Positions 10,770 through 19,936 of a stretch of DNA of 64,000 nt are shown one piece after another. Each line of letters starts with the position of its first letter. The first letter of the stretch is position 1. The notes beneath the pieces are model-generated. The model made no database searches, was not told the origin of the DNA, and saw nothing but the letters and a program-made list of their open reading frames with translations. Made by a program: the position numbers and the translations under genes. The DNA lies in assembly GCA_022729235.1 (NCBI GenBank), contig JALDAJ010000001.1, positions 608,001 to 672,000 of the forward strand, written 5' to 3'. This stretch comes from Candidatus Nanohalarchaeota archaeon. GTDB lineage: Archaea; Nanohalarchaeota; Nanosalinia; Nanosalinales; Nanosalinaceae.

Positions 10770-12512
10770 TCAAAATTCTTTGAGGTCGTTTCCGTCCATG
10801 AAACCTTTGAGGCTCTTCTCTAACTCTTCAACATTTACTCTTACCTGTTCAGTGGAGTCCCTGTCCCGGAGAGTCACGGTCCCGTCTTCCAGGGTCTGGT
10901 GGTCCACGGTCGCGCATATCGGCGTACCGATCTCGTCCTGCCGCCTGTAACGGCGACCGATAGCGCCTGAATCATCATACTTCACGGAGAAACCGCTTTC
11001 TCTTAGGCTCCTGGCGACTTTTCGTGCGCGCTCTCCCATCCCGTCCTTATCCATCAATGGGAATACAGCCACTTCTACAGGTGCGACTTCCGCGGGTAAG
11101 CGGAGAACGGTTCTCTCCTCTCCATCTACTTCGTCTTCCTCAAGGTTATGCGCTAGAACCGTGTAGAGTATTCGGTCGACACCGAACGACGGTTCTACAG
11201 TTTCAGGCATGATATGTTCTCCGGTCTCCTCAACTTCTTTTCGTGTAAATCCTGTTTTCTCCACGGGAACATTTACAGTCTCGCCATCGATTTCCAAGCT
11301 GATGCTTTCCTGCTCCTCGAACCTCTCCGGTTCTTCCTCCGCGATTCTCCCGAGTTCGTCCGCGATATCTGAGGCGCGGTCACCGTATTCAGGTCCAAGG
11401 ACGCTCATGTCTGGACTGACGGTTGCTTTCTCCACGGTCTTGGGCTCGTCGTATGGCTTGAAAACAGTGAAGTCTTCGCCCGAGTGCTCCTGGTGCTTCT
11501 TGAGGTCGTAGCATCCTCTGTACGCGAAACCTGTGATTTCAATCCAGTCACCTCCGACTTCAGATTCGGCGTCCCAGCAGTCGCTCGCGTAGTGCGACCT
11601 CTCGTCCTCCAGGTGCTGCCGGAACCTGAACCGGTCCATATCGATACCTATCCGCTCGTACCACTTCTTTGAGATACCGAGATAGTATGCTATCCAGTCG
11701 CTCGCGACCACGCCGTTTTCGACTGCTTCCGCCACGGTCATCTCGAGTACTTCTCCGCCGTCTTTATCCTGCTCGTTGATAGGGTAAAGGCGGAGCTCGA
11801 CGTCTTCCACGTCCTCCATTTCCGGTTCGTCTTTTTCTGGATCGATAAAGAACTCCAGCTCTGCCTGCGTGAACTCTCTGACGCGGACAATCGATTTCCG
11901 CGGTGATATCTCGTTCCTGTAAGCCTTTCCTATCTGTGTAACCCCGAACGGCAGCTGGTTGCGGGCGTATTCTTTCCACTGAGGGAACTCGACGAAGATT
12001 CCCTGAGCTGTTTCAGGTCGTAAGTAGCCGGGTGAGGAATCTCCTGGACCGATGTTTGTGCCGAACATCAGGTTGAAATCGTCGACTTCCACGTCTGCCA
12101 GTTCCTCGCCGCAGTTCGGACACTGGAGGCTGTTTTCTTCGATTATCTCCATTATCCTATCGGTGGAGAAGCTCTCCGCCTCCTCGATATCCGTGTTATC
12201 CTCGACCAGATGGTCTGCCCTGATGGATTCGCCGCACTCGGGGCATTCTATTATCATGTCGTCGAAGGTCTCAAGGTGCCCGGATGCCTCGAACACGTCT
12301 TCAGGCATGATTGTCGGTGCTTCTATCTCCATGTTGCCTTCCTGGTAGGTGAACCGGTCTCTCCATACATCCTCCAGGTTTCTCTTCAAGGCGGTACCGT
12401 GGGGTCCGAACGTGTAGAAACCGGCTGTACCTCCGTAAATCTCATTGGAGGGAATAAAAAATCCGCGTCTCTTCGCCAGTTCTTTCAGGCTCTGTGTGGT
12501 ATTCTGGGTCAC
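10770..12512 (-). CDS. glyS: Glycine--tRNA ligase (alpha2 type)
   Basis: LRPETAQG, RNEISPR, REFTQAE, EPSFGVDR, IGRRYRRQDEIG. Start re-assigned to GTG 12512 because SD GAGGTG lies 6 nt upstream. Confidence 0.95.
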   Translation of the reverse strand: MTQNTTQSLKELAKRRGFFIPSNEIYGGTAGFYTFGPHGTALKRNLEDVWRDRFTYQEGNMEIEAPTIMPEDVFEASGHLETFDDMIIECPECGESIRADHLVEDNTDIEEAESFSTDRIMEIIEENSLQCPNCGEELADVEVDDFNLMFGTNIGPGDSSPGYLRPETAQGIFVEFPQWKEYARNQLPFGVTQIGKAYRNEISPRKSIVRVREFTQAELEFFIDPEKDEPEMEDVEDVELRLYPINEQDKDGGEVLEMTVAEAVENGVVASDWIAYYLGISKKWYERIGIDMDRFRFRQHLEDERSHYASDCWDAESEVGGDWIEITGFAYRGCYDLKKHQEHSGEDFTVFKPYDEPKTVEKATVSPDMSVLGPEYGDRASDIADELGRIAEEEPERFEEQESISLEIDGETVNVPVEKTGFTRKEVEETGEHIMPETVEPSFGVDRILYTVLAHNLEEDEVDGEERTVLRLPAEVAPVEVAVFPLMDKDGMGERARKVARSLRESGFSVKYDDSGAIGRRYRRQDEIGTPICATVDHQTLEDGTVTLRDRDSTEQVRVNVEELEKSLKGFMDGNDLKEF

Positions 12513-12590
12513 TTTTGACACCTCTGGAAAAGTTGTCGATTAGAAGCCTTAAAAACCGACAGGACGAAAGAGCTAGAACTGGTTAAAGGG

Positions 12591-12674
12591 TTATTCGAAA
12601 CACGTGAAGTGTTTCTCAACGCAACTTCCTGGAGAAAGCTGCGAGAGTCCAAAGTAGCCACCCTTGATTGACAT
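12591..12674 (-). promoter_or_regulatory. glyS leader ORF MSIKGGYFGLSQLSPGSCVEKHFTCFE* with putative +1 frameshift cassette GGT GGC TAC TTT GGA(Gly)
   Basis: Read by hand. The +1 frame is open from 12652 to 12509, and its TGA overlaps the glyS GTG. Confidence 0.7.
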
Positions 12675-13985: not shown

Positions 13986-14152
13986 ATGCAGCAAGGTGGC
14001 TGTTTTTGGACTTTTGCATCTGAATGATTTAGACAGCAGTATTTCTATTCCGGGTGGATGTTTTTGGGCCATCTAGTCTTCTAAAGGACAGGTTACGCTT
14101 TTCCCTGAACTATCTCAGAATCTGCTCAGTAAGGGAGCTTTCATGGCTTTAA
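13986..14152 (+). promoter_or_regulatory. Trp leader A: MQQGGCFWTFASE* (13986-14027), with a second cassette PGGCFW in its +1 frame (14050-14067)
   Basis: GGT GGC TGT TTT TGG and GGT GGA TGT TTT TGG lie in successive +1 frames. TATA-like ACTTAA about 25 nt upstream. Confidence 0.6.
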
Positions 14153-14294: not shown

Positions 14295-14369
14295 ATGACA
14301 AACGACACACAAGACGAAACACAGGCAGAAGCCCGACAGGGGGGATGTTTTTGGAGAACAAAATCTTGA
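14295..14369 (+). promoter_or_regulatory. Trp leader B: MTNDTQDETQAEARQGGCFWRTKS* with cassette GGG GGA TGT TTT TGG(Trp)
   Basis: TATTTAAA box and GTGAT SD-like sequence upstream. The +1 frame runs to TAG 14406 and overlaps the next ORF. Confidence 0.6.
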
Positions 14370-14389
14370 AGAAGTTGTAAAGGGGGGCA

Positions 14390-14725
14390 TTGCTGGAGCA
14401 GGGTAGAGAAAGGGCTGTTTCGGTAATTGATAACTGTCTAACGATTGATGTAGACTCTTTCGATGAGGAAGTCTATTCAGAGGTTTTTGAGGTGCTGTTT
14501 TCTCCTGAAGAAGGATATCTAAGAGATGTTCCAGAGGACTTCCAATTCCGGCTCAGAAAAATATCGAGGTTCACTGTCGGCTGGGGTACGGAGTACTCGG
14601 AAACATATTCCAATGAACTAACTGGCCGTGATATCCGGGAGATGCAGAGGAAGGCGGTTGAAGAATCGTACACAGTTGGCTATTCCTCTGAAAAGTTCAT
14701 CGAACTGTACGAGGAGGTGATGTAG
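14390..14725 (+). CDS. Hypothetical acidic protein upstream of trpS
   Basis: 111 aa with host-like acidic composition. Weak TTG start. Confidence 0.55.
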   Translation: MLEQGRERAVSVIDNCLTIDVDSFDEEVYSEVFEVLFSPEEGYLRDVPEDFQFRLRKISRFTVGWGTEYSETYSNELTGRDIREMQRKAVEESYTVGYSSEKFIELYEEVM

Positions 14726-14786: not shown

Positions 14787-15890
14787 ATGCCAGAGATAGA
14801 TCCGTGGGGAGACGTTGAAGTCGGAGAGTACCGTGAAAAGATGGAGAAGTTTGGTATCGAGCCGATCGAAGAGATAGCAGATAAGCTCCCTGACCACCGA
14901 TACATAAGAAGAGGGATAATCTTCGGTCACCGCGGGATGGACGAGTACCTGGACGCGCTCGACGACGGCGAGGACGTGGCGATGATAACTGGTATAATGC
15001 CGTCCGGCATGTTCCACCTCGGGCACAAGATAGTGGTCGACCAGGTGCTGATGTACCAGGAGATGGGCGCAGACGTAACTCTCACTGCGGCGGACATCGA
15101 AGCGCACAACACCCGCGGTATCTCGCTGGAAGACGCGCGTGAGATGGTTATCGAGCAGTACCTGACCAATTACGTCGCTCTGGGTCTCGACCTGGAGAAC
15201 GTTGATTTCTACTTCCAGAGCCAGGCAGGCAACGACCACCTTGCCCGCTCCAAACTTTTCGCGAAGCACCTGACACGGAACGAGATGGACGCCACCTACG
15301 GAGAACCAAGTCCTGGTAAGATAGCGTCCGCATTAATGCAGTACGCCGACATACTGAGACCGCAGTTCCCGGAGAACGGCGGACCGAAACCAACTGTTGT
15401 TCCTGTTGGTATCGACCAGGACCCTCACATAAGACTGACCCGGGAGGTCGCGCGGAAGGCGTCTCAAGACTTCTACAAGCCCGCATCCATTTACAACAAG
15501 TTCATGCGCGGGCTTCAGGGTGGGAAGATGTCGAGCAGCGATCCGAAGAGCTACATCGCGCTTACAGATTCTGTTGAAGAGGAGAAACAGAAGATCGACG
15601 AGGCGAAGACTGGTGGTCGTGACACGCTGGAGGAGCACCGTGAGAAAGGTGCGGACGTTGAAGAGGACATGGTCTTCGAACTACTTGCTTTCCACCTTAT
15701 CGAGGACGACTCCGAGCTTGAACGTATCCGTGAAGAGTATGAGTCGGGCGAGATGCTGTCCGGAGAACTCAAGCAGATAGCGAAGGAGAAACTGGAGGAG
15801 TTCCTCCTCGCGCATAAAGAGAGGAGAGAAGACGCGCGTGAAGAAGTCGAACAGTTCGTCGAGGAGAACGTAGAGTCAGAACTTGTTTAA
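14787..15890 (+). CDS. trpS: Tryptophan--tRNA ligase
   Basis: TGIMPSGMFHLGH (HIGH), VPVGIDQDPH, KMSSS. Confidence 0.95.
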   Translation: MPEIDPWGDVEVGEYREKMEKFGIEPIEEIADKLPDHRYIRRGIIFGHRGMDEYLDALDDGEDVAMITGIMPSGMFHLGHKIVVDQVLMYQEMGADVTLTAADIEAHNTRGISLEDAREMVIEQYLTNYVALGLDLENVDFYFQSQAGNDHLARSKLFAKHLTRNEMDATYGEPSPGKIASALMQYADILRPQFPENGGPKPTVVPVGIDQDPHIRLTREVARKASQDFYKPASIYNKFMRGLQGGKMSSSDPKSYIALTDSVEEEKQKIDEAKTGGRDTLEEHREKGADVEEDMVFELLAFHLIEDDSELERIREEYESGEMLSGELKQIAKEKLEEFLLAHKERREDAREEVEQFVEENVESELV

Positions 15891-15914
15891 GTCCGGCTCC
15901 AGTATTTCTGACTT

Positions 15915-16610
15915 ATGTTGCCCGAGTTGATACTGCGTGAGGAGGAAGAGGAGAACCTTCCTCTGCTTGCAGTTCTAGGTCTCGCATCAGGTCTGGCAGG
16001 ATTTATTGCTGCAAGAGCTCTTTTTCCATCGCAGATAGATCTTCTTACGGTGATTTTTGCCTCGATACCGCTTGTATACCCTCTCGTGACGTATTTCCTG
16101 GAGCGTGAGAACGAGTCGCGACCCCATCTCCCGGAGATACAGGTCTACGGTTCGATTTTCCTTGGAATGGCGGCAGCATTCTTTATCCTGGGCTTGTATA
16201 ATCCTGAGTTATTCTCATTGCAGAATGCTATTATAGGTGCTGCAGGGCATGCAGTCAATCCAGTATCCTTCACCACGGTCTTATCCAATAACCTGATGGT
16301 GTTCCTGGGGATTCTGGCTGTCGCGTCGATTATAGGGTCGGCAGGAGCCTTTATACTGACCTGGAATGCCTCAGTCTTAGGAGTCTTCATGGCAGGGCTT
16401 GTACGTGACTCTATTCTCATGCCGTTCGCCTACATCCCCCACGCGTCTCTGGAGATGGCAGGGTTCATAGTCGCAGGAGTTGCAGGTACAATGATCTCTG
16501 CCGCAGTCTACAGAGAGCATTTCGATAAGGATACATGGCTCGACCTCTCAAAGCTGGTCGCCACGGGTGTTGGACTGATAGTCATCGCGGCGGTGCTGGA
16601 GACTGCGTAG
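15915..16610 (+). CDS. SpoIIM/DUF95 family membrane protein
   Basis: Multi-TM, with NNLMV, WNASVLG, PHASLEMAGF and AAVLET. Confidence 0.75.
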   Translation: MLPELILREEEEENLPLLAVLGLASGLAGFIAARALFPSQIDLLTVIFASIPLVYPLVTYFLERENESRPHLPEIQVYGSIFLGMAAAFFILGLYNPELFSLQNAIIGAAGHAVNPVSFTTVLSNNLMVFLGILAVASIIGSAGAFILTWNASVLGVFMAGLVRDSILMPFAYIPHASLEMAGFIVAGVAGTMISAAVYREHFDKDTWLDLSKLVATGVGLIVIAAVLETA

Positions 16611-16641
16611 ATATTAAAATCTGTGGTACAAGAAGAGAGTT

Positions 16642-16698
16642 ATGTCACCATCCGAAGCACAGGGAACACTGAAGGGTGGACGTTTTTTCCGCCTGTGA
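16642..16698 (+). promoter_or_regulatory. pheS leader ORF MSPSEAQGTLKGGRFFRL* with putative +1 frameshift cassette GGT GGA CGT TTT TTC(Phe)
   Basis: TATA-like ATTAAAA about 25 nt upstream. The +1 frame is open from 16685 to 16798, and its TGA overlaps the pheS GTG. Confidence 0.72.
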
Positions 16699-16794
16699 AA
16701 GGCAGATTAACAGCTCTATTTCTGGATTGGTTTTTTCGAGGTCTCGGACAGGTATCGCTCAGATATTAAAGTTTAATTTGGGAGGTGTAAACCT

Positions 16795-18186
16795 GTGAGA
16801 CTTTCAAGCCAGTCAATACAGGTTCTGGAAGAACTGAGAGAACAGAGCCCACGCACGGTCGAAGATCTGGAAAAAGAGGGATACGACCAGTCGATGGTTC
16901 ACCGTGCCGCGATGGAACTTGAAGAAAAAGGAATTGTTAACTACAGGGAGGAGGAAGAGGTAGAATGGGTCATAACTCCTGCCGGCGAAGAAGTAATTCA
17001 AGAAGGCTCGCCCGAGCACCAGCTAATAGAGAGGCTTGCGGATGGAGCTGTACCGCTCTCCGAACTTGAAGATCTCGACCTGGATGTCGCGCTTGGAAAG
17101 GCGCGGGAGAAGGGATGGGTCCGTATCAAGGAGGGCGAGGTCTCGCTTACCGAACAGGGACGGCAGGGTCTCGGCTCGGACCGTGTTCAAAACAAGTTAA
17201 AGGACCAGGAATACGACGAAGAGGTCCGTGAGAGAGGGCTGGTCGCGCCGCAGGAAAGAACTGAACGAATACTGGATTTGACTGGTGAAGGAGAAGCCAT
17301 AGATACAGGAGAGCTAGGAGAGGAGTTCAACGTCGAGGCGCGGGTGAAAACACCGCGGACAGGTAAGAAACATTTCTACCGCGAGATAATGGACTACGCC
17401 CGCCGTGTGTGGAAAGACATGGGCTTCGAGGAGATGAGCGGTGACTACGTCACCTCCGGACTGATGAACTTCGACGCGCTTTACATCCCGCAAGACCACC
17501 CTGCCAGAGAGCTCCAGGACTCGTTCTTCATGGAGACTCCGGCGAAAACAGATTTATCCATTTATGGGGGAAAGGTGCAGGAAGTGAAAGACGTCCACGA
17601 GTTTGGTGGTGATGCCGGCGGTAAGGGATGGCAGTACGATTGGTCGCGTGAAGACGCGGAAAGAAACGTGCTGAGAACACATACAACTGACGTTTCCGCG
17701 AAGAGGCTCCACGAGATGGAGATTAACGAGGAGGAGCTACCGAAAAAGTTCTTCTGTCTTGGTAGAGCGTTCAGGAATGAGACGGTTGACAGGACTCACA
17801 ACGCAGAGTTCTACCAGACCGACGGTATCGTCGTAGGAAAAGACCTGAGCTTCCGCAACCTGAAAGGTTACCTGAGCGAGTTCTTCGAGAAGATGGGTTA
17901 CAGCGAGTTCCGGCTTATCCCCTCCTACTACCCCTACACGGAGATGAGCGTAGAGGTACAGGTCTGGGACGATGAAGACGAGGAATGGCTCGGGATGGGT
18001 GGAGCAGGTATGTTCCGCCCGGAAGTTGTGAAACCGATGCTGGGCTTCGAGGCGACAGTACTGGCATGGGGTCTAGGAATCGGGAGGATAGCCATGATAA
18101 ACGCCGAACTCAACGATATAAGAGAGCTTTACAGGAACGATATCGAAATCCTGGAACAGACACCTGTATGGAGGCCTGATCAGTAA
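16795..18186 (+). CDS. pheS: Phenylalanine--tRNA ligase alpha subunit
   Basis: NFDALYIPQDHPARELQD, LRTHTT, FRNETVDRTH, YYPYTE, GMFRPE. SD GGAGGTG. Confidence 0.95.
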   Translation: MRLSSQSIQVLEELREQSPRTVEDLEKEGYDQSMVHRAAMELEEKGIVNYREEEEVEWVITPAGEEVIQEGSPEHQLIERLADGAVPLSELEDLDLDVALGKAREKGWVRIKEGEVSLTEQGRQGLGSDRVQNKLKDQEYDEEVRERGLVAPQERTERILDLTGEGEAIDTGELGEEFNVEARVKTPRTGKKHFYREIMDYARRVWKDMGFEEMSGDYVTSGLMNFDALYIPQDHPARELQDSFFMETPAKTDLSIYGGKVQEVKDVHEFGGDAGGKGWQYDWSREDAERNVLRTHTTDVSAKRLHEMEINEEELPKKFFCLGRAFRNETVDRTHNAEFYQTDGIVVGKDLSFRNLKGYLSEFFEKMGYSEFRLIPSYYPYTEMSVEVQVWDDEDEEWLGMGGAGMFRPEVVKPMLGFEATVLAWGLGIGRIAMINAELNDIRELYRNDIEILEQTPVWRPDQ

Positions 18187-18189
18187 TGA

Positions 18190-18280
18190 CGAAAACAAGT
18201 TTTCTTAAGCTCGAAAACCGTAGGTTTTCTGCAGTCGAGAAGACTCATAGAGTCTTCGACCTCGCCAACCACGAGGTGGT
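18190..18280 (+). repeat. Palindromic intergenic element between pheS and pheT
   Basis: Hairpins GAAAACC-GTA-GGTTTTC and GAAGACTC-ATA-GAGTCTTC. Confidence 0.5.
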
Positions 18281-18286
18281 AGCCGA

Positions 18287-19936
18287 GTGCCTCACGTAAA
18301 AATAGACAAGAGAGAGTTCGATGAACTCGTCGGTAGAGAGGTCGATGAAGAACTACTGTACGAGAAGGCTTCTTTCCTCGGCGTCCACTGGAACCATGAA
18401 GAGGGTCCAGAATGGGATGTAGAAGTCTATCCAAACCGACCTGATTTACTCAGTGTAGAAGGCTTGGCTCGTGCGTACAGAGGTTTCTTCGGCGTGAAGA
18501 CTGGGTCGGAGAGTTACACTCCTTCAGGAGGCTCCATTGAGGTCGATATCGATTCTTCAGTCGAGGAAGTAAGACCTCACATCGCCTGCGCAGTCGTGAG
18601 GGATGTTGATGTATCAGAAAAGATACTGAACGGCTGGATACAGCTACAGGAGAAGCTCCACGAGTCGATGGGGCGGAAGAGGGATAAACTGGCGATAGGT
18701 CTTCACGACCTTGGACAGGTTGAGCCACCGTTCACCTACAGGGCGGTGGAGCCGGATAGAGTATCATTCACTCCTCTCGAACATGACAGGGAGATGCAGT
18801 TAGGGGAGATACTGGATGAGCACGAGAAGGGGCAGGAATACGCGTGGATACTCGAAGACGAGGACAGATACCCGGTGATAGAAGATTCGGAAGGAAGAGT
18901 TATCTCTTTCCCTCCTATAATCAACAACCAGCTGACCGAGGTAACAGCCGGGACAAGCGACATATTCATCGACGTGACTGGAAAGGATCGCAGGACAGTA
19001 CTTAAAGTACTAAACATCCTCACCACGGCTCTCTCCGAGAGGGGAGGTTACGTGGAAACGGTACTGGTCAACGGAGAGGAGATGCCTGACCTGGAACCTG
19101 ATGAATGGAAACTAGACCCGGAATATTTCCGGGACATCTCTGGTCTCGAACTTGATGACAGTCAAATCATCGAACGGCTGGAGAAGATGAAGTTCGGGGC
19201 GGAGAAGAAAAACGATGCTATAGAAGTCAGGGTCCCGGCTTACAGGAACGACGTGATGCACCAGTACGACCTGATAGAGGACGTGGTGATCGCACACGGC
19301 TACGACAATATAGAACCGGAGATACCTGAGATCGACCAGGTCGCAGAGGAAAGACCTGTCGAGGATTACACGCGTATAATGAGAGATATACTACAGGGTA
19401 CGGGGGCGCTGGAAACTCATACCTATGTGCTCTCCAACCGCGAGAAACTGTTCCACAGGATGAACCTTGAGGGGGAAGAGATCGCAGAGATGTCGAATGC
19501 GTTGACAGAGGACTACACCGCGGTAAGAAACTGGCTCCTTCCCTCCTTGATGAATGTGCTTCGGAGGAACAGGCACCGATCCTACCCGCAGAAGTTCTTC
19601 GAGGTCGCCGATGTCTCGGTGCTGGACGACTCTGCAACAGGCGCGTCCAACAGGAGAAAGCTGGCGTACGTCCACTCAGGCAACAGCGCGGATTATACAG
19701 ATGTCCGGCAGGTACTCCAGGTGCTGGAACGTGATCTTGGAGTTGAGTTCCGTATAGATTCTGGATCAGGAAACTGCTTCGACCCTGAACGCTCCGGCGA
19801 CATCTACCTGGGAGAGGAAAAGATAGGTATTATAGGTGAGTTCTCCAGCAGTGTCATAGAGAACTGGGACCTGGACCGCGGCGTTGCGGGCTTCGAGCTG
19901 GACGTGGAGAAATTGCTGGAGATCATCAGGAACTAG
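18287..19936 (+). CDS. pheT: Phenylalanine--tRNA ligase beta subunit
   Basis: PNRPDLLSVEG, QEKLH, SFPPIIN, DLIEDVVIAHGY. Confidence 0.95.
   Translation: MPHVKIDKREFDELVGREVDEELLYEKASFLGVHWNHEEGPEWDVEVYPNRPDLLSVEGLARAYRGFFGVKTGSESYTPSGGSIEVDIDSSVEEVRPHIACAVVRDVDVSEKILNGWIQLQEKLHESMGRKRDKLAIGLHDLGQVEPPFTYRAVEPDRVSFTPLEHDREMQLGEILDEHEKGQEYAWILEDEDRYPVIEDSEGRVISFPPIINNQLTEVTAGTSDIFIDVTGKDRRTVLKVLNILTTALSERGGYVETVLVNGEEMPDLEPDEWKLDPEYFRDISGLELDDSQIIERLEKMKFGAEKKNDAIEVRVPAYRNDVMHQYDLIEDVVIAHGYDNIEPEIPEIDQVAEERPVEDYTRIMRDILQGTGALETHTYVLSNREKLFHRMNLEGEEIAEMSNALTEDYTAVRNWLLPSLMNVLRRNRHRSYPQKFFEVADVSVLDDSATGASNRRKLAYVHSGNSADYTDVRQVLQVLERDLGVEFRIDSGSGNCFDPERSGDIYLGEEKIGIIGEFSSSVIENWDLDRGVAGFELDVEKLLEIIRN

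Follow-up and report, generated by a model that had tools for sequence, protein, structure and literature searches.

The window analysed here is a 64,000-nucleotide (nt) stretch of the genome of a Candidatus Nanohalarchaeota archaeon (assembly GCA_022729235.1, contig JALDAJ010000001.1, positions 608,001 to 672,000 of the forward strand); the genome is a single contig of 1.03 Mb. We describe the region upstream of pheS, the gene for the alpha subunit of phenylalanyl-tRNA synthetase (PheRS), and a short leader open reading frame (ORF) that lies there. Coordinates are window positions on the + strand unless we say otherwise.

The pheS locus

pheS (16795..18186; PF01409, E = 1.6e-78) begins with a GTG at 16795. 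This is the true start, because tblastn alignments begin at query residue 1 in all 27 of the oriented orthologous loci. (In a named collection, the relatives of this pheS are Nanohaloarchaea and include Candidatus Nanohalobium and Nanosalina.) A spacer of 184 nt separates pheS from the stop codon of a SpoIIM-like gene (16608-10). Within the spacer, a distal TATA-like box (ATATTAAAA, 16611..16619) is centred 27 nt 5' of an ATG at 16642, which opens the leader ORF in what we will call the 0 frame (MSPSEAQGTLKGGRFFRL*, 16642..16698, with its TGA at 16696-98). A proximal TATA-like box (ATATTAAAG, 16763..16771) is centred about 27 nt before the pheS GTG. A Shine-Dalgarno sequence, GGAGGTG (16781..16787), lies 7 nt before the GTG; it would occur only on the long transcript that contains the leader.

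The leader ORF contains the cassette AAG GGT GGA CGT TTT TTC (16672..16689). This comprises a Shine-Dalgarno-like GGUGG core (16675-79), a codon of the form YRY (CGT), a TTT (16684-86) that would be in the P site when the next codon is decoded, and a TTC (16687-89), which is cognate to the downstream synthetase and which we will call the sensor codon. The core includes a GTG (16676-78) in the +1 frame, and there is a run of six T at 16683-16688. If read from 16688, the +1 frame is open for 36 sense codons (SACERQINSSISGLVFSRSRTGIAQILKFNLGGVNL*, 16688..16798), and its TGA (16796-98) overlaps the GTG of pheS as GTGA. We refer to this as the conveyor frame. An earlier note on this DNA had described both the ATG downstream of a TATA-like box and a +1 frame that is open from CGT TTT TTC to the start of pheS, and both are as it described.

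In 79 of 20,000 shuffles of 16611-16794 (about 0.4%), there was an equivalent arrangement, which we defined as an ATG-initiated ORF with TTT-TTY whose +1 frame ends within -20 to +12 nt of the start codon. For the pheS locus taken alone, these odds are suggestive; it is the paralogous and orthologous cassettes that make the case decisive.

Similar cassettes upstream of other synthetase genes

The 16-nt core of the pheS cassette recurs upstream of serS in the same genome. Throughout the phylum, short ORFs upstream of aminoacyl-tRNA synthetase genes carry a cassette of the form AAR-GGT-GGN-YRY-TTT-X, where X is the cognate codon. We located the synthetase genes of this genome with Pfam models and then read their upstream regions. 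With the sensor residue written after the hyphen, the leader of PheRS reads ...KGGRF-F. The leaders of ThrRS (MKGGCF-T), LeuRS (...KGGHV-L), and ValRS (...KGGRF-V) have +1 frames that end in an ATGA overlap with the start codon, in ValRS after 61 codons. The +1 stop is 5 nt into the gene for SerRS (MKGGRF-S) and 11 nt before the ATG for CysRS (MIMSSDRF-C). The GlyRS leader (MSIKGGYF-G) is in the window on the - strand: the leader ORF (MSIKGGYFGLSQ...*) is at 12591..12674 with GGA as its sensor codon, and the +1 frame (12509..12649) has 46 sense codons and a TGA that overlaps the GlyRS GTG at 12512 (GTGA). Three ...GGCF-W cassettes lie upstream of TrpRS (see below).

A scan of this genome for GGN GGN YGN TTT gave 24 sites, and 22 of these are in frames of at most 70 codons. 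For the Ile, His, Pro, Asp, Lys/Asn, Tyr, Glu, Arg, and Ala enzymes of this genome, no cassette was found within 300 nt. Motif matches at genome positions 620125, 743316, and 743761 were antisense or lacked a start codon, and we dropped them. We also considered a GGCF-TGA within a gene, at genome position 808548, as an RF2-type site; it lies out of frame in a continuous ORF and matches by chance.

An open +1 frame and a cognate codon in the relatives

From 40 relatives in the same family and order, we took up to 30 loci each for ThrRS, ValRS, and SerRS. A peptide-level search of these loci gave 63 matches. Fifty-nine of them have GTG at positions 4-6 of the cassette (23 Thr, 19 Ser, and 17 Val), and the other four are evident false matches. 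The other loci had no cassette (Thr 5, Ser 8, Val 7), only false matches to the regular expression (Ser 2), too little upstream sequence (Thr 1, Ser 1, Val 2), no assignable start (Thr 1, Val 3), or no N-terminal match (Val 1).

Counted from the start of the synthetase gene, the +1 frame reaches its first stop within -20 to +12 nt in 58 of the 59 leaders, as compared to 6 of 59 for the -1 frame and none for the 0 frame. Shuffles predict 6.07 such leaders, with a maximum of 19 in 200,000 simulations. (The relatives are not independent of each other, and the leaders are too diverged to align outside of the cassette.) The +1 frames of these leaders are 22-68 codons long. The stop is mostly within an ATGA for Thr, mostly at +4 or +5 for Ser, and anywhere from +5 to -17 for Val; stop/start overlaps of the form ATGA or GTGA are common. 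This placement, like the GTGA at pheS, is the layout of termination-reinitiation. The central idea of the earlier note, that the leader ORF has a cassette with a +1 frame that remains open up to a stop on the synthetase's start, is upheld by this comparison.

We also searched with nucleotide patterns that leave X free. Up to 400 nt upstream of synthetase genes, X was cognate in 56 of 56 matches (ThrRS 21, ValRS 14, SerRS 19, PheRS 2). A second survey covered 60 regions around matches that were not explained by Thr, Val, Ser, or Phe genes (64 cassette instances, one of them seen twice). In this survey, X was cognate in all 28 cases in which the downstream ORF, with its start next to the +1 stop, matched a synthetase of G000 by blastp (Cys 3, Gly 14, Tyr 7, Trp 2, Ser 1, Phe 1). 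One Ser leader is common to both sets. So the feature of leader-peptide attenuators, a cognate codon in the leader ORF, is present, once per cassette and without exception.

The pattern AARGGTGGNYRYTTT has 114 matches in 41 genomes, as compared to 8 for a reversed control, and it is found in 55 of 70 genomes of the phylum and in 47 of 49 genomes of the family. A loose Phe pattern, RGTGRNYRYTTTTTY, was not enriched (32 matches versus about 47 for the control), and we kept only its exact GGTGG-type matches. In relatives, the cassette also precedes genes for TyrRS, a TrpD-type transferase, a TrpB-like pyridoxal-phosphate enzyme, and an aminotransferase; PALP (TrpB-like) ORFs follow other Trp cassettes. 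Ile, His, Leu, and Lys cassettes, as well as further Phe cassettes, are found before non-synthetase genes or ORFs without an assigned identity. Pfam searches on several other ORFs that follow a cassette gave GCS2-like, AstE/AspA-like, or GNAT matches or nothing, with no common theme. On this comparison, the pheS leader is best described as a member of a large and previously undescribed family of nanohaloarchaeal leaders.

Two side observations concern Phe and Ser leaders. The Phe cassettes before non-synthetase genes (KGGCFF, KGGRFF, and RGGCFF; L178 in G022, L165 in G044, L234 in G002, and L163/L245 in G027) again have a +1 stop beside the start codon. The genes that follow encode a GCS2-like protein, an AstE/AspA-like hydrolase, and a 361-amino-acid protein without a Pfam match; in G027, the +1 frame ends in ATGA and no downstream ORF was identified. 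In family f3, the SerRS leaders (L111, L117, L118, and L121) are of a different conserved kind, ATG ACA GGG TTT T.. CGC CAA TCA (MTGF[S/C/Y]RQS). As the residue after F is variable, this may be a second type of element.

The cassette is conserved as nucleotides

Among the 59 leaders, 57 have GGT as the first Gly codon and 2 have CGT there, while only 29% of Gly codons genome-wide are GGT. The second Gly position may instead encode Glu or Asp, and the peptide varies (KRG, KGE, KGD, SD) while the GTG stays. The codon before the P site is always YRY (encoding Arg, Cys, His, or Tyr). The P-site codon is TTT in 49 leaders and CCC, CCT, GTT, CTT, or GCG in the others. Wherever it encodes Phe it is TTT (49 of 49), as compared to 28% of Phe codons genome-wide. 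The sole tRNA-Phe has the anticodon GAA, so TTT is read by G:U wobble. In all 59 leaders, GGUG(G/A) lies 4-5 nt before the P-site codon. This element is complementary to the 3' end of the 16S rRNA (...GGATCACCTCC), and GGTG is the core Shine-Dalgarno motif of the genome, with enrichment at -15 to -6 from start codons. The spacing within the cassette is tighter than the 7 nt at the Shine-Dalgarno sequence of pheS. These patterns indicate that selection on the cassette acts at the level of the RNA and not the peptide.

This changes how the pheS leader should be read. The earlier note saw a Phe-Phe slippery site. We find that TTT is the constant P-site codon of the cassettes, so that only the second codon, TTC, is a Phe-specific sensor. 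The same note proposed that the tRNA re-pairs perfectly on TTT after the shift. Re-pairing would indeed be full at pheS (TTT-T) and in the Ser, Trp, and Cys cassettes, but this is not general: the Thr, Val, and Gly cassettes read TTT-A or TTT-G, for which 2 of 3 positions re-pair, and GTT-C, GCG-T, and CCT-A would re-pair poorly. We also considered transcriptional slippage on the T6 run of pheS, but most cassettes have TTT only, so slippage cannot be general.

Across 119 leader ATGs, positions -36 to -24 are 66-84% A+T. Both this A+T-rich zone and the spacing of the TATA-like box at pheS fit leaderless transcripts, which we predict for these leaders.

The pheS leader among its orthologs

Among the 27 pheS loci, an extra upstream segment is present only in this genome and in its sole congener, G001. 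The G001 leader is MTAGTRLPTGPTDYKGGCFFRG*, and its 22-codon +1 frame ends in GTGA on the start of pheS. By scanning all 70 genomes with a pattern, we found a third pheS leader in another genus (G067; MSLSLKGGRFFEY*), with a 30-codon +1 frame that ends in ATGA on pheS. All three leaders contain KGG[R/C]F-F. They have in common the cassette, a TATA-like box, and a Shine-Dalgarno sequence, and no other sequence. Among 15 named nanohaloarchaeal pheS loci, we found no leader beyond that of G001. In the leaderless loci, a TATA-like box lies about 25-33 nt before the GTG or ATG of pheS, and this box, of the proximal type, is the sole promoter element.

The earlier note expected a conserved cassette and an open +1 frame upstream of pheS across the nanohaloarchaea, and it regarded orthologous leaders that lack the cassette or have stops in the +1 frame as evidence against its proposal. 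The cassette and the open frame are present in all three leaders that we found, whose peptides are otherwise unrelated, but 25 of the 27 loci have no leader. Taken literally, the note's condition would make this a point against its proposal; yet those loci do not contain a +1 frame interrupted by stops, as the leader is simply absent.

Downstream of pheS, a 37-codon relay ORF (18186..18299) has an ATG that overlaps the stop codon of pheS (TAATG), and it ends 10 nt past the GTG of pheT (18287..19936), which encodes the beta subunit of PheRS. Wherever the gap between pheS and pheT is at least 25 nt (25-100 nt), a relay ORF bridges it (7 of 7 loci: 18186-18299 in the window, L007, L009, L011, L018, L020, and L025). 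These ORFs start on the stop codon of pheS and end within -4 to +10 nt of the start of pheT. In the remaining 19 loci, the gap is -4 to +10 nt.

Trp cassettes, and enzymes encoded in the +1 frame

Two relatives have a Trp cassette whose +1 frame is the main frame of an enzyme. In G035, this +1 frame is a 397-codon ORF that matches PF00591 (TrpD-type, E = 3.5e-38). In G011, it is a 344-codon ORF that matches PF00155 (aminotransferase, E = 2.7e-41). In both cases, the GTG of the cassette is the only ATG, GTG, or TTG within the first 80 codons. Because real enzymes lie in it in these two relatives, we conclude that the +1 frame is translated.

In our genome, TrpRS (14787-15890) is downstream of a 111-codon ORF (14390-14725) and of three Trp cassettes. 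Cassette 1 (MQQGGCFWTFASE*, 13986..14027) has its sensor TGG at 14007-09, and its +1 frame (14008..14076) reads cassette 2 (PGGCFW, 14053-67) in frame; cassettes 1 and 2 are two sensors in series. Cassette 3 (MTNDTQDETQAEARQGGCFWRTKS*, 14295..14369) has the Gly codons GGG GGA and hence no GTG. Its G-rich, Shine-Dalgarno-like run is kept, there is no start codon in its +1 frame (14353-14406), and that frame stops 14 nt after the TTG of the 111-codon ORF.

We made several further observations on Trp and double cassettes. The product of the 111-codon ORF is acidic and has no Pfam match. In G001, G024, G023, G019, and G013, the +1 frame of a Trp cassette runs for 108-132 codons to the start of TrpRS or a TrpB-like gene (in G024 and G013, no downstream ORF was identified); the resemblance of such frames to the 111-codon ORF is weak at best. 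The G011 leader (L243) begins with ATG AAG GTG GAC GCT TTT GG, a degenerate first cassette that is read in the +1 frame. G011 has acquired this ATG two codons 5' of the GTG, and it looks as if evolution has bypassed the first sensor in this way. Elsewhere in our genome (L036; genome C1:831474 and 831809, + strand), two Trp cassettes (MNQGGCFW... and ...KGGCFW...) precede an ORF of 147 amino acids without a Pfam match, and the +1 frame of the first contains a degenerate second cassette (GDCFW*). Two different cassettes can also share one frame: KGGRF-I then KGGRV-L in our genome (L037; genome C1:457118-457200, + strand), G018, and G002 (further loci are L230, L233, and L211), and KGGRF-V then EGGRV-L in G014. 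Two cassettes in one frame would give an either-or sensor. L037 precedes two small acidic ORFs (95 and 109 amino acids).

Outside the window, the frame of MetRS (genome C1:797374-797536, - strand) lacks an ATG, GTG, or TTG in the vicinity of its conserved N-terminus (ITFEHERVTVTSALPY...), and there is a GTG in another frame just after GGTGA. Perhaps MetRS has a non-canonical start, or its translation involves another recoding event.

Proposed mechanism

We propose that these leaders probably shift ribosomes into a second frame that ends on the start codon of the enzyme. We favor an RF2-like +1 frameshift at a starved ("hungry") codon, which would act as a sensor and would be coupled to the synthetase by termination-reinitiation; we rate this as fairly probable. 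For pheS, we infer frameshifting from the layout of the leader, and it could proceed as follows. Transcription from the distal promoter would give a leaderless mRNA that begins at ATG 16642. The ribosome would translate M-S-P-...-K-G-G-R-F until the wobble-read TTT is in the P site and TTC is in the A site, with GGUGG 4-5 nt behind the P site, where it could pair with the 3' end of the 16S rRNA. If Phe-tRNA is plentiful, then TTC would be read, and the ribosome would stop three codons on at 16696-98, with about 100 nt still to go to pheS. With little charged tRNA-Phe, the paused ribosome would instead move to the +1 frame, read 36 codons through the proximal promoter and the Shine-Dalgarno region, terminate at the TGA of the GTGA, and re-initiate on the GTG of pheS. 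The relay ORF would then carry ribosomes from pheS on to pheT. The logic would be homeostatic: a scarcity of charged tRNA would cause a pause and a shift that delivers a ribosome to the start of the synthetase.

More broadly, we think the chances are slightly better than even that the fixed GGUGG/YRY/UUU cassette is a modular, codon-addressable frameshift switch, which turns whichever codon follows it into a sensor of the corresponding aminoacyl-tRNA. It would have been copied before at least 10 synthetase genes, enzymes of the Trp-pathway type, and an aminotransferase, and its output would be either a fusion in the +1 frame or a conveyor frame with re-initiation. There also appear to be logical combinations of cassettes: with tandem Trp cassettes in successive frames, both shifts would be needed, while for Ile and Leu or Val and Leu in one frame, either shift would do.

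Alternative explanations

The main rival to frameshifting is that the two overlapping ORFs are translated without it. Independent initiation at the embedded GUG (16676-78) would feed pheS, and the ATG-initiated leader would be a regulatory upstream ORF that modulates access to this GUG; in a variant, a stalled ribosome would drop its short peptide and re-initiate on the GUG. We consider this unlikely, but it has support, as the GTG is kept in all 59 leaders even as the peptide of the 0 frame changes, and this near-invariant GTG could be a start codon instead. GGR-GGN variants without the GTG are not enriched over the control pattern, and Trp cassette 3 is the only example of a cassette that lacks it. 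Also, this GTG is the sole nearby in-frame start of both enzymes in the +1 frame, and the ATG in G011 was acquired just before the GTG of a degenerate cassette. A GUG start would not have a Shine-Dalgarno sequence at a working distance, as the G-rich run abuts the GUG, in contrast to the usual position of GGTG in this genome. Nor is the GUG 5'-terminal, as it is 8-20 codons from the 5' end in the Val, Trp, and Gly leaders. A ribosome that is stalled at X would cover the GUG, which is 8 nt behind the P site, and therefore starvation would lower the output of the synthetases and the Trp enzymes, which is the wrong direction. Initiation at GUG also gives no account of why the Phe P-site codon is always TTT, and Trp cassette 3 does not have any start codon in its +1 frame. 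We also considered whether ribosomes could terminate at the end of the leader ORF and then re-initiate in the +1 frame; we set this aside, as a +1 start lies within 7 nt of the leader's stop in only 3 of the 59 leaders. Other observations weigh against frameshifting. Most pheS loci have no leader, with a TATA-like box directly after the stop of the upstream gene, and pheS has its own proximal promoter and a strong Shine-Dalgarno sequence, with which it could be expressed independently of the leader. Nothing in the proposal accounts for the YRY codon before TTT, re-pairing is good only if X begins with T, and in one of the 59 leaders the +1 frame already stops 99 nt before the start codon.

It could also be that stalling is all that matters: the pause would act on termination at T runs (16683-88 and 16731-36), on mRNA stability, or on RNA folding, and the open +1 frame would be incidental. 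We think this improbable. Oligo-T runs terminate transcription in archaea, there are such runs in and after the pheS cassette, and leaderless ORFs with a single cognate codon would suit this explanation. However, it gives no reason for the +1 frame to be open in nearly all of the leaders when about six are expected, and in the Thr, Val, and Gly cassettes the T run does not extend past TTT. We also found no terminator-like hairpin or site at the pheS leader, and in the three pheS leaders there was no significant RNA fold that would sequester the start (z = -1.5, -0.85, and -0.45), an observation that counts against both this explanation and frameshifting. With cmscan, there was no T-box in 15500-18000 at E up to 10, only two chance matches to unrelated Rfam families. 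We had noticed that AAGGGTGGA resembles the T-box core motif, but the base after GGTGG bears no relation to the amino acid, and the codon is 6 nt away in a translated ORF. Finally, we give almost no credence to the idea that the pheS arrangement is due to chance or is a remnant, so that the region is a mere spacer with the terminator of the SpoIIM-like gene and two promoters. The absence of the leader from most orthologs fits this idea, and the arrangement did arise in a few shuffles of this single locus. But the cassette and its frame are kept in our genome, G001, and G067 despite unrelated flanking sequence, the family far exceeds its control, and the cognate rule has no exception, so the comparative data in practice refutes it.

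Comparison to known systems

The closest parallel to the frameshift that we propose is in prfB (RF2), where a Shine-Dalgarno-like run and a short spacer are followed by a YRY codon in the E site, a G:U-wobble codon in the P site, and a slow codon in the A site. The cassettes have the same elements, including an A-site sensor of the gene's own supply, but their sensor is a sense codon that is cognate to the synthetase, while in prfB it is a stop codon that RF2 itself, the product of the gene, recognizes. Their spacer is 4-5 nt instead of 3 nt, the organism is an archaeon with a predicted leaderless mRNA, and one cassette is re-used with at least 10 sensor codons. Only in the two relatives described above is the +1 frame the main ORF of the enzyme, as it is in prfB; at pheS, it ends on the start codon and does not encode the enzyme.

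As in the leaders of E. coli pheST, trp, and his, whose attenuation depends on a short ORF with cognate codons, the cassettes would report on tRNA charging; but they have a single cognate codon, no terminator or antiterminator hairpins, and a conserved second frame. The T-box riboswitches of Gram-positive bacteria also control a regulon of synthetase and amino acid genes with one specifier codon per gene. However, in T-boxes uncharged tRNA binds a structured RNA without a ribosome, while here the codon is in an ATG-initiated ORF that has no Rfam match. A slow A-site codon permits a +1 shift in yeast Ty1, under starvation in the laboratory, and in antizyme, but in none of these cases is there a family of sensors, each specific to one amino acid and placed before the corresponding synthetase gene. 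The frameshift of antizyme is described as a metabolic sensor in a review of archaeal recoding (PMC8211752).

According to parts of two reports on Haloferax volcanii (PMC6728339 and PMC10666635), re-initiation is documented there at stop/start overlaps or across very short gaps. The overlaps in our leaders (ATGA, GTGA) and the very short distances are alike, but in those accounts the upstream ORF is a normal gene, while in our leaders it is a conveyor frame, which is not conserved and which ribosomes probably enter only under certain conditions. In mycobacteria, as described in portions of a preprint (bioRxiv 10.1101/834739), leaderless short ORFs with Cys codons respond to cysteine and control downstream genes. 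As portrayed there, they have runs of Cys codons and act by attenuation, with no second frame and no cassette that is common to different amino acids.

Significance

How archaea match the levels of their synthetases to tRNA charging is, to our knowledge, essentially unknown, and we know of no T-boxes, attenuators, or autoregulation of synthetases, as in bacteria, that have been described in Archaea. In a full-text search of the literature, we found no description of such synthetase leaders. Passages of the 2021 review of archaeal recoding (PMC8211752) count only one reported programmed frameshift in Archaea, a -1 shift, and those passages do not mention synthetase leaders.

If our proposal is correct, then these leaders would be the first case in Archaea of a regulatory +1 frameshift system, with the T-box regulon of bacteria as its functional counterpart. 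They would be a natural case of starved sense codons serving regulation, with a general sensor of single aminoacyl-tRNAs that is built into how the ribosome maintains its reading frame. At about 18 nt plus one codon, the sensor would also be compact, and changing a single codon might be enough to re-target it. For the annotation of nanohaloarchaeal genomes, it would mean that gene finders miss or mis-call dozens of short ORFs and conveyor frames, along with at least two enzyme genes that do not have a conventional start.

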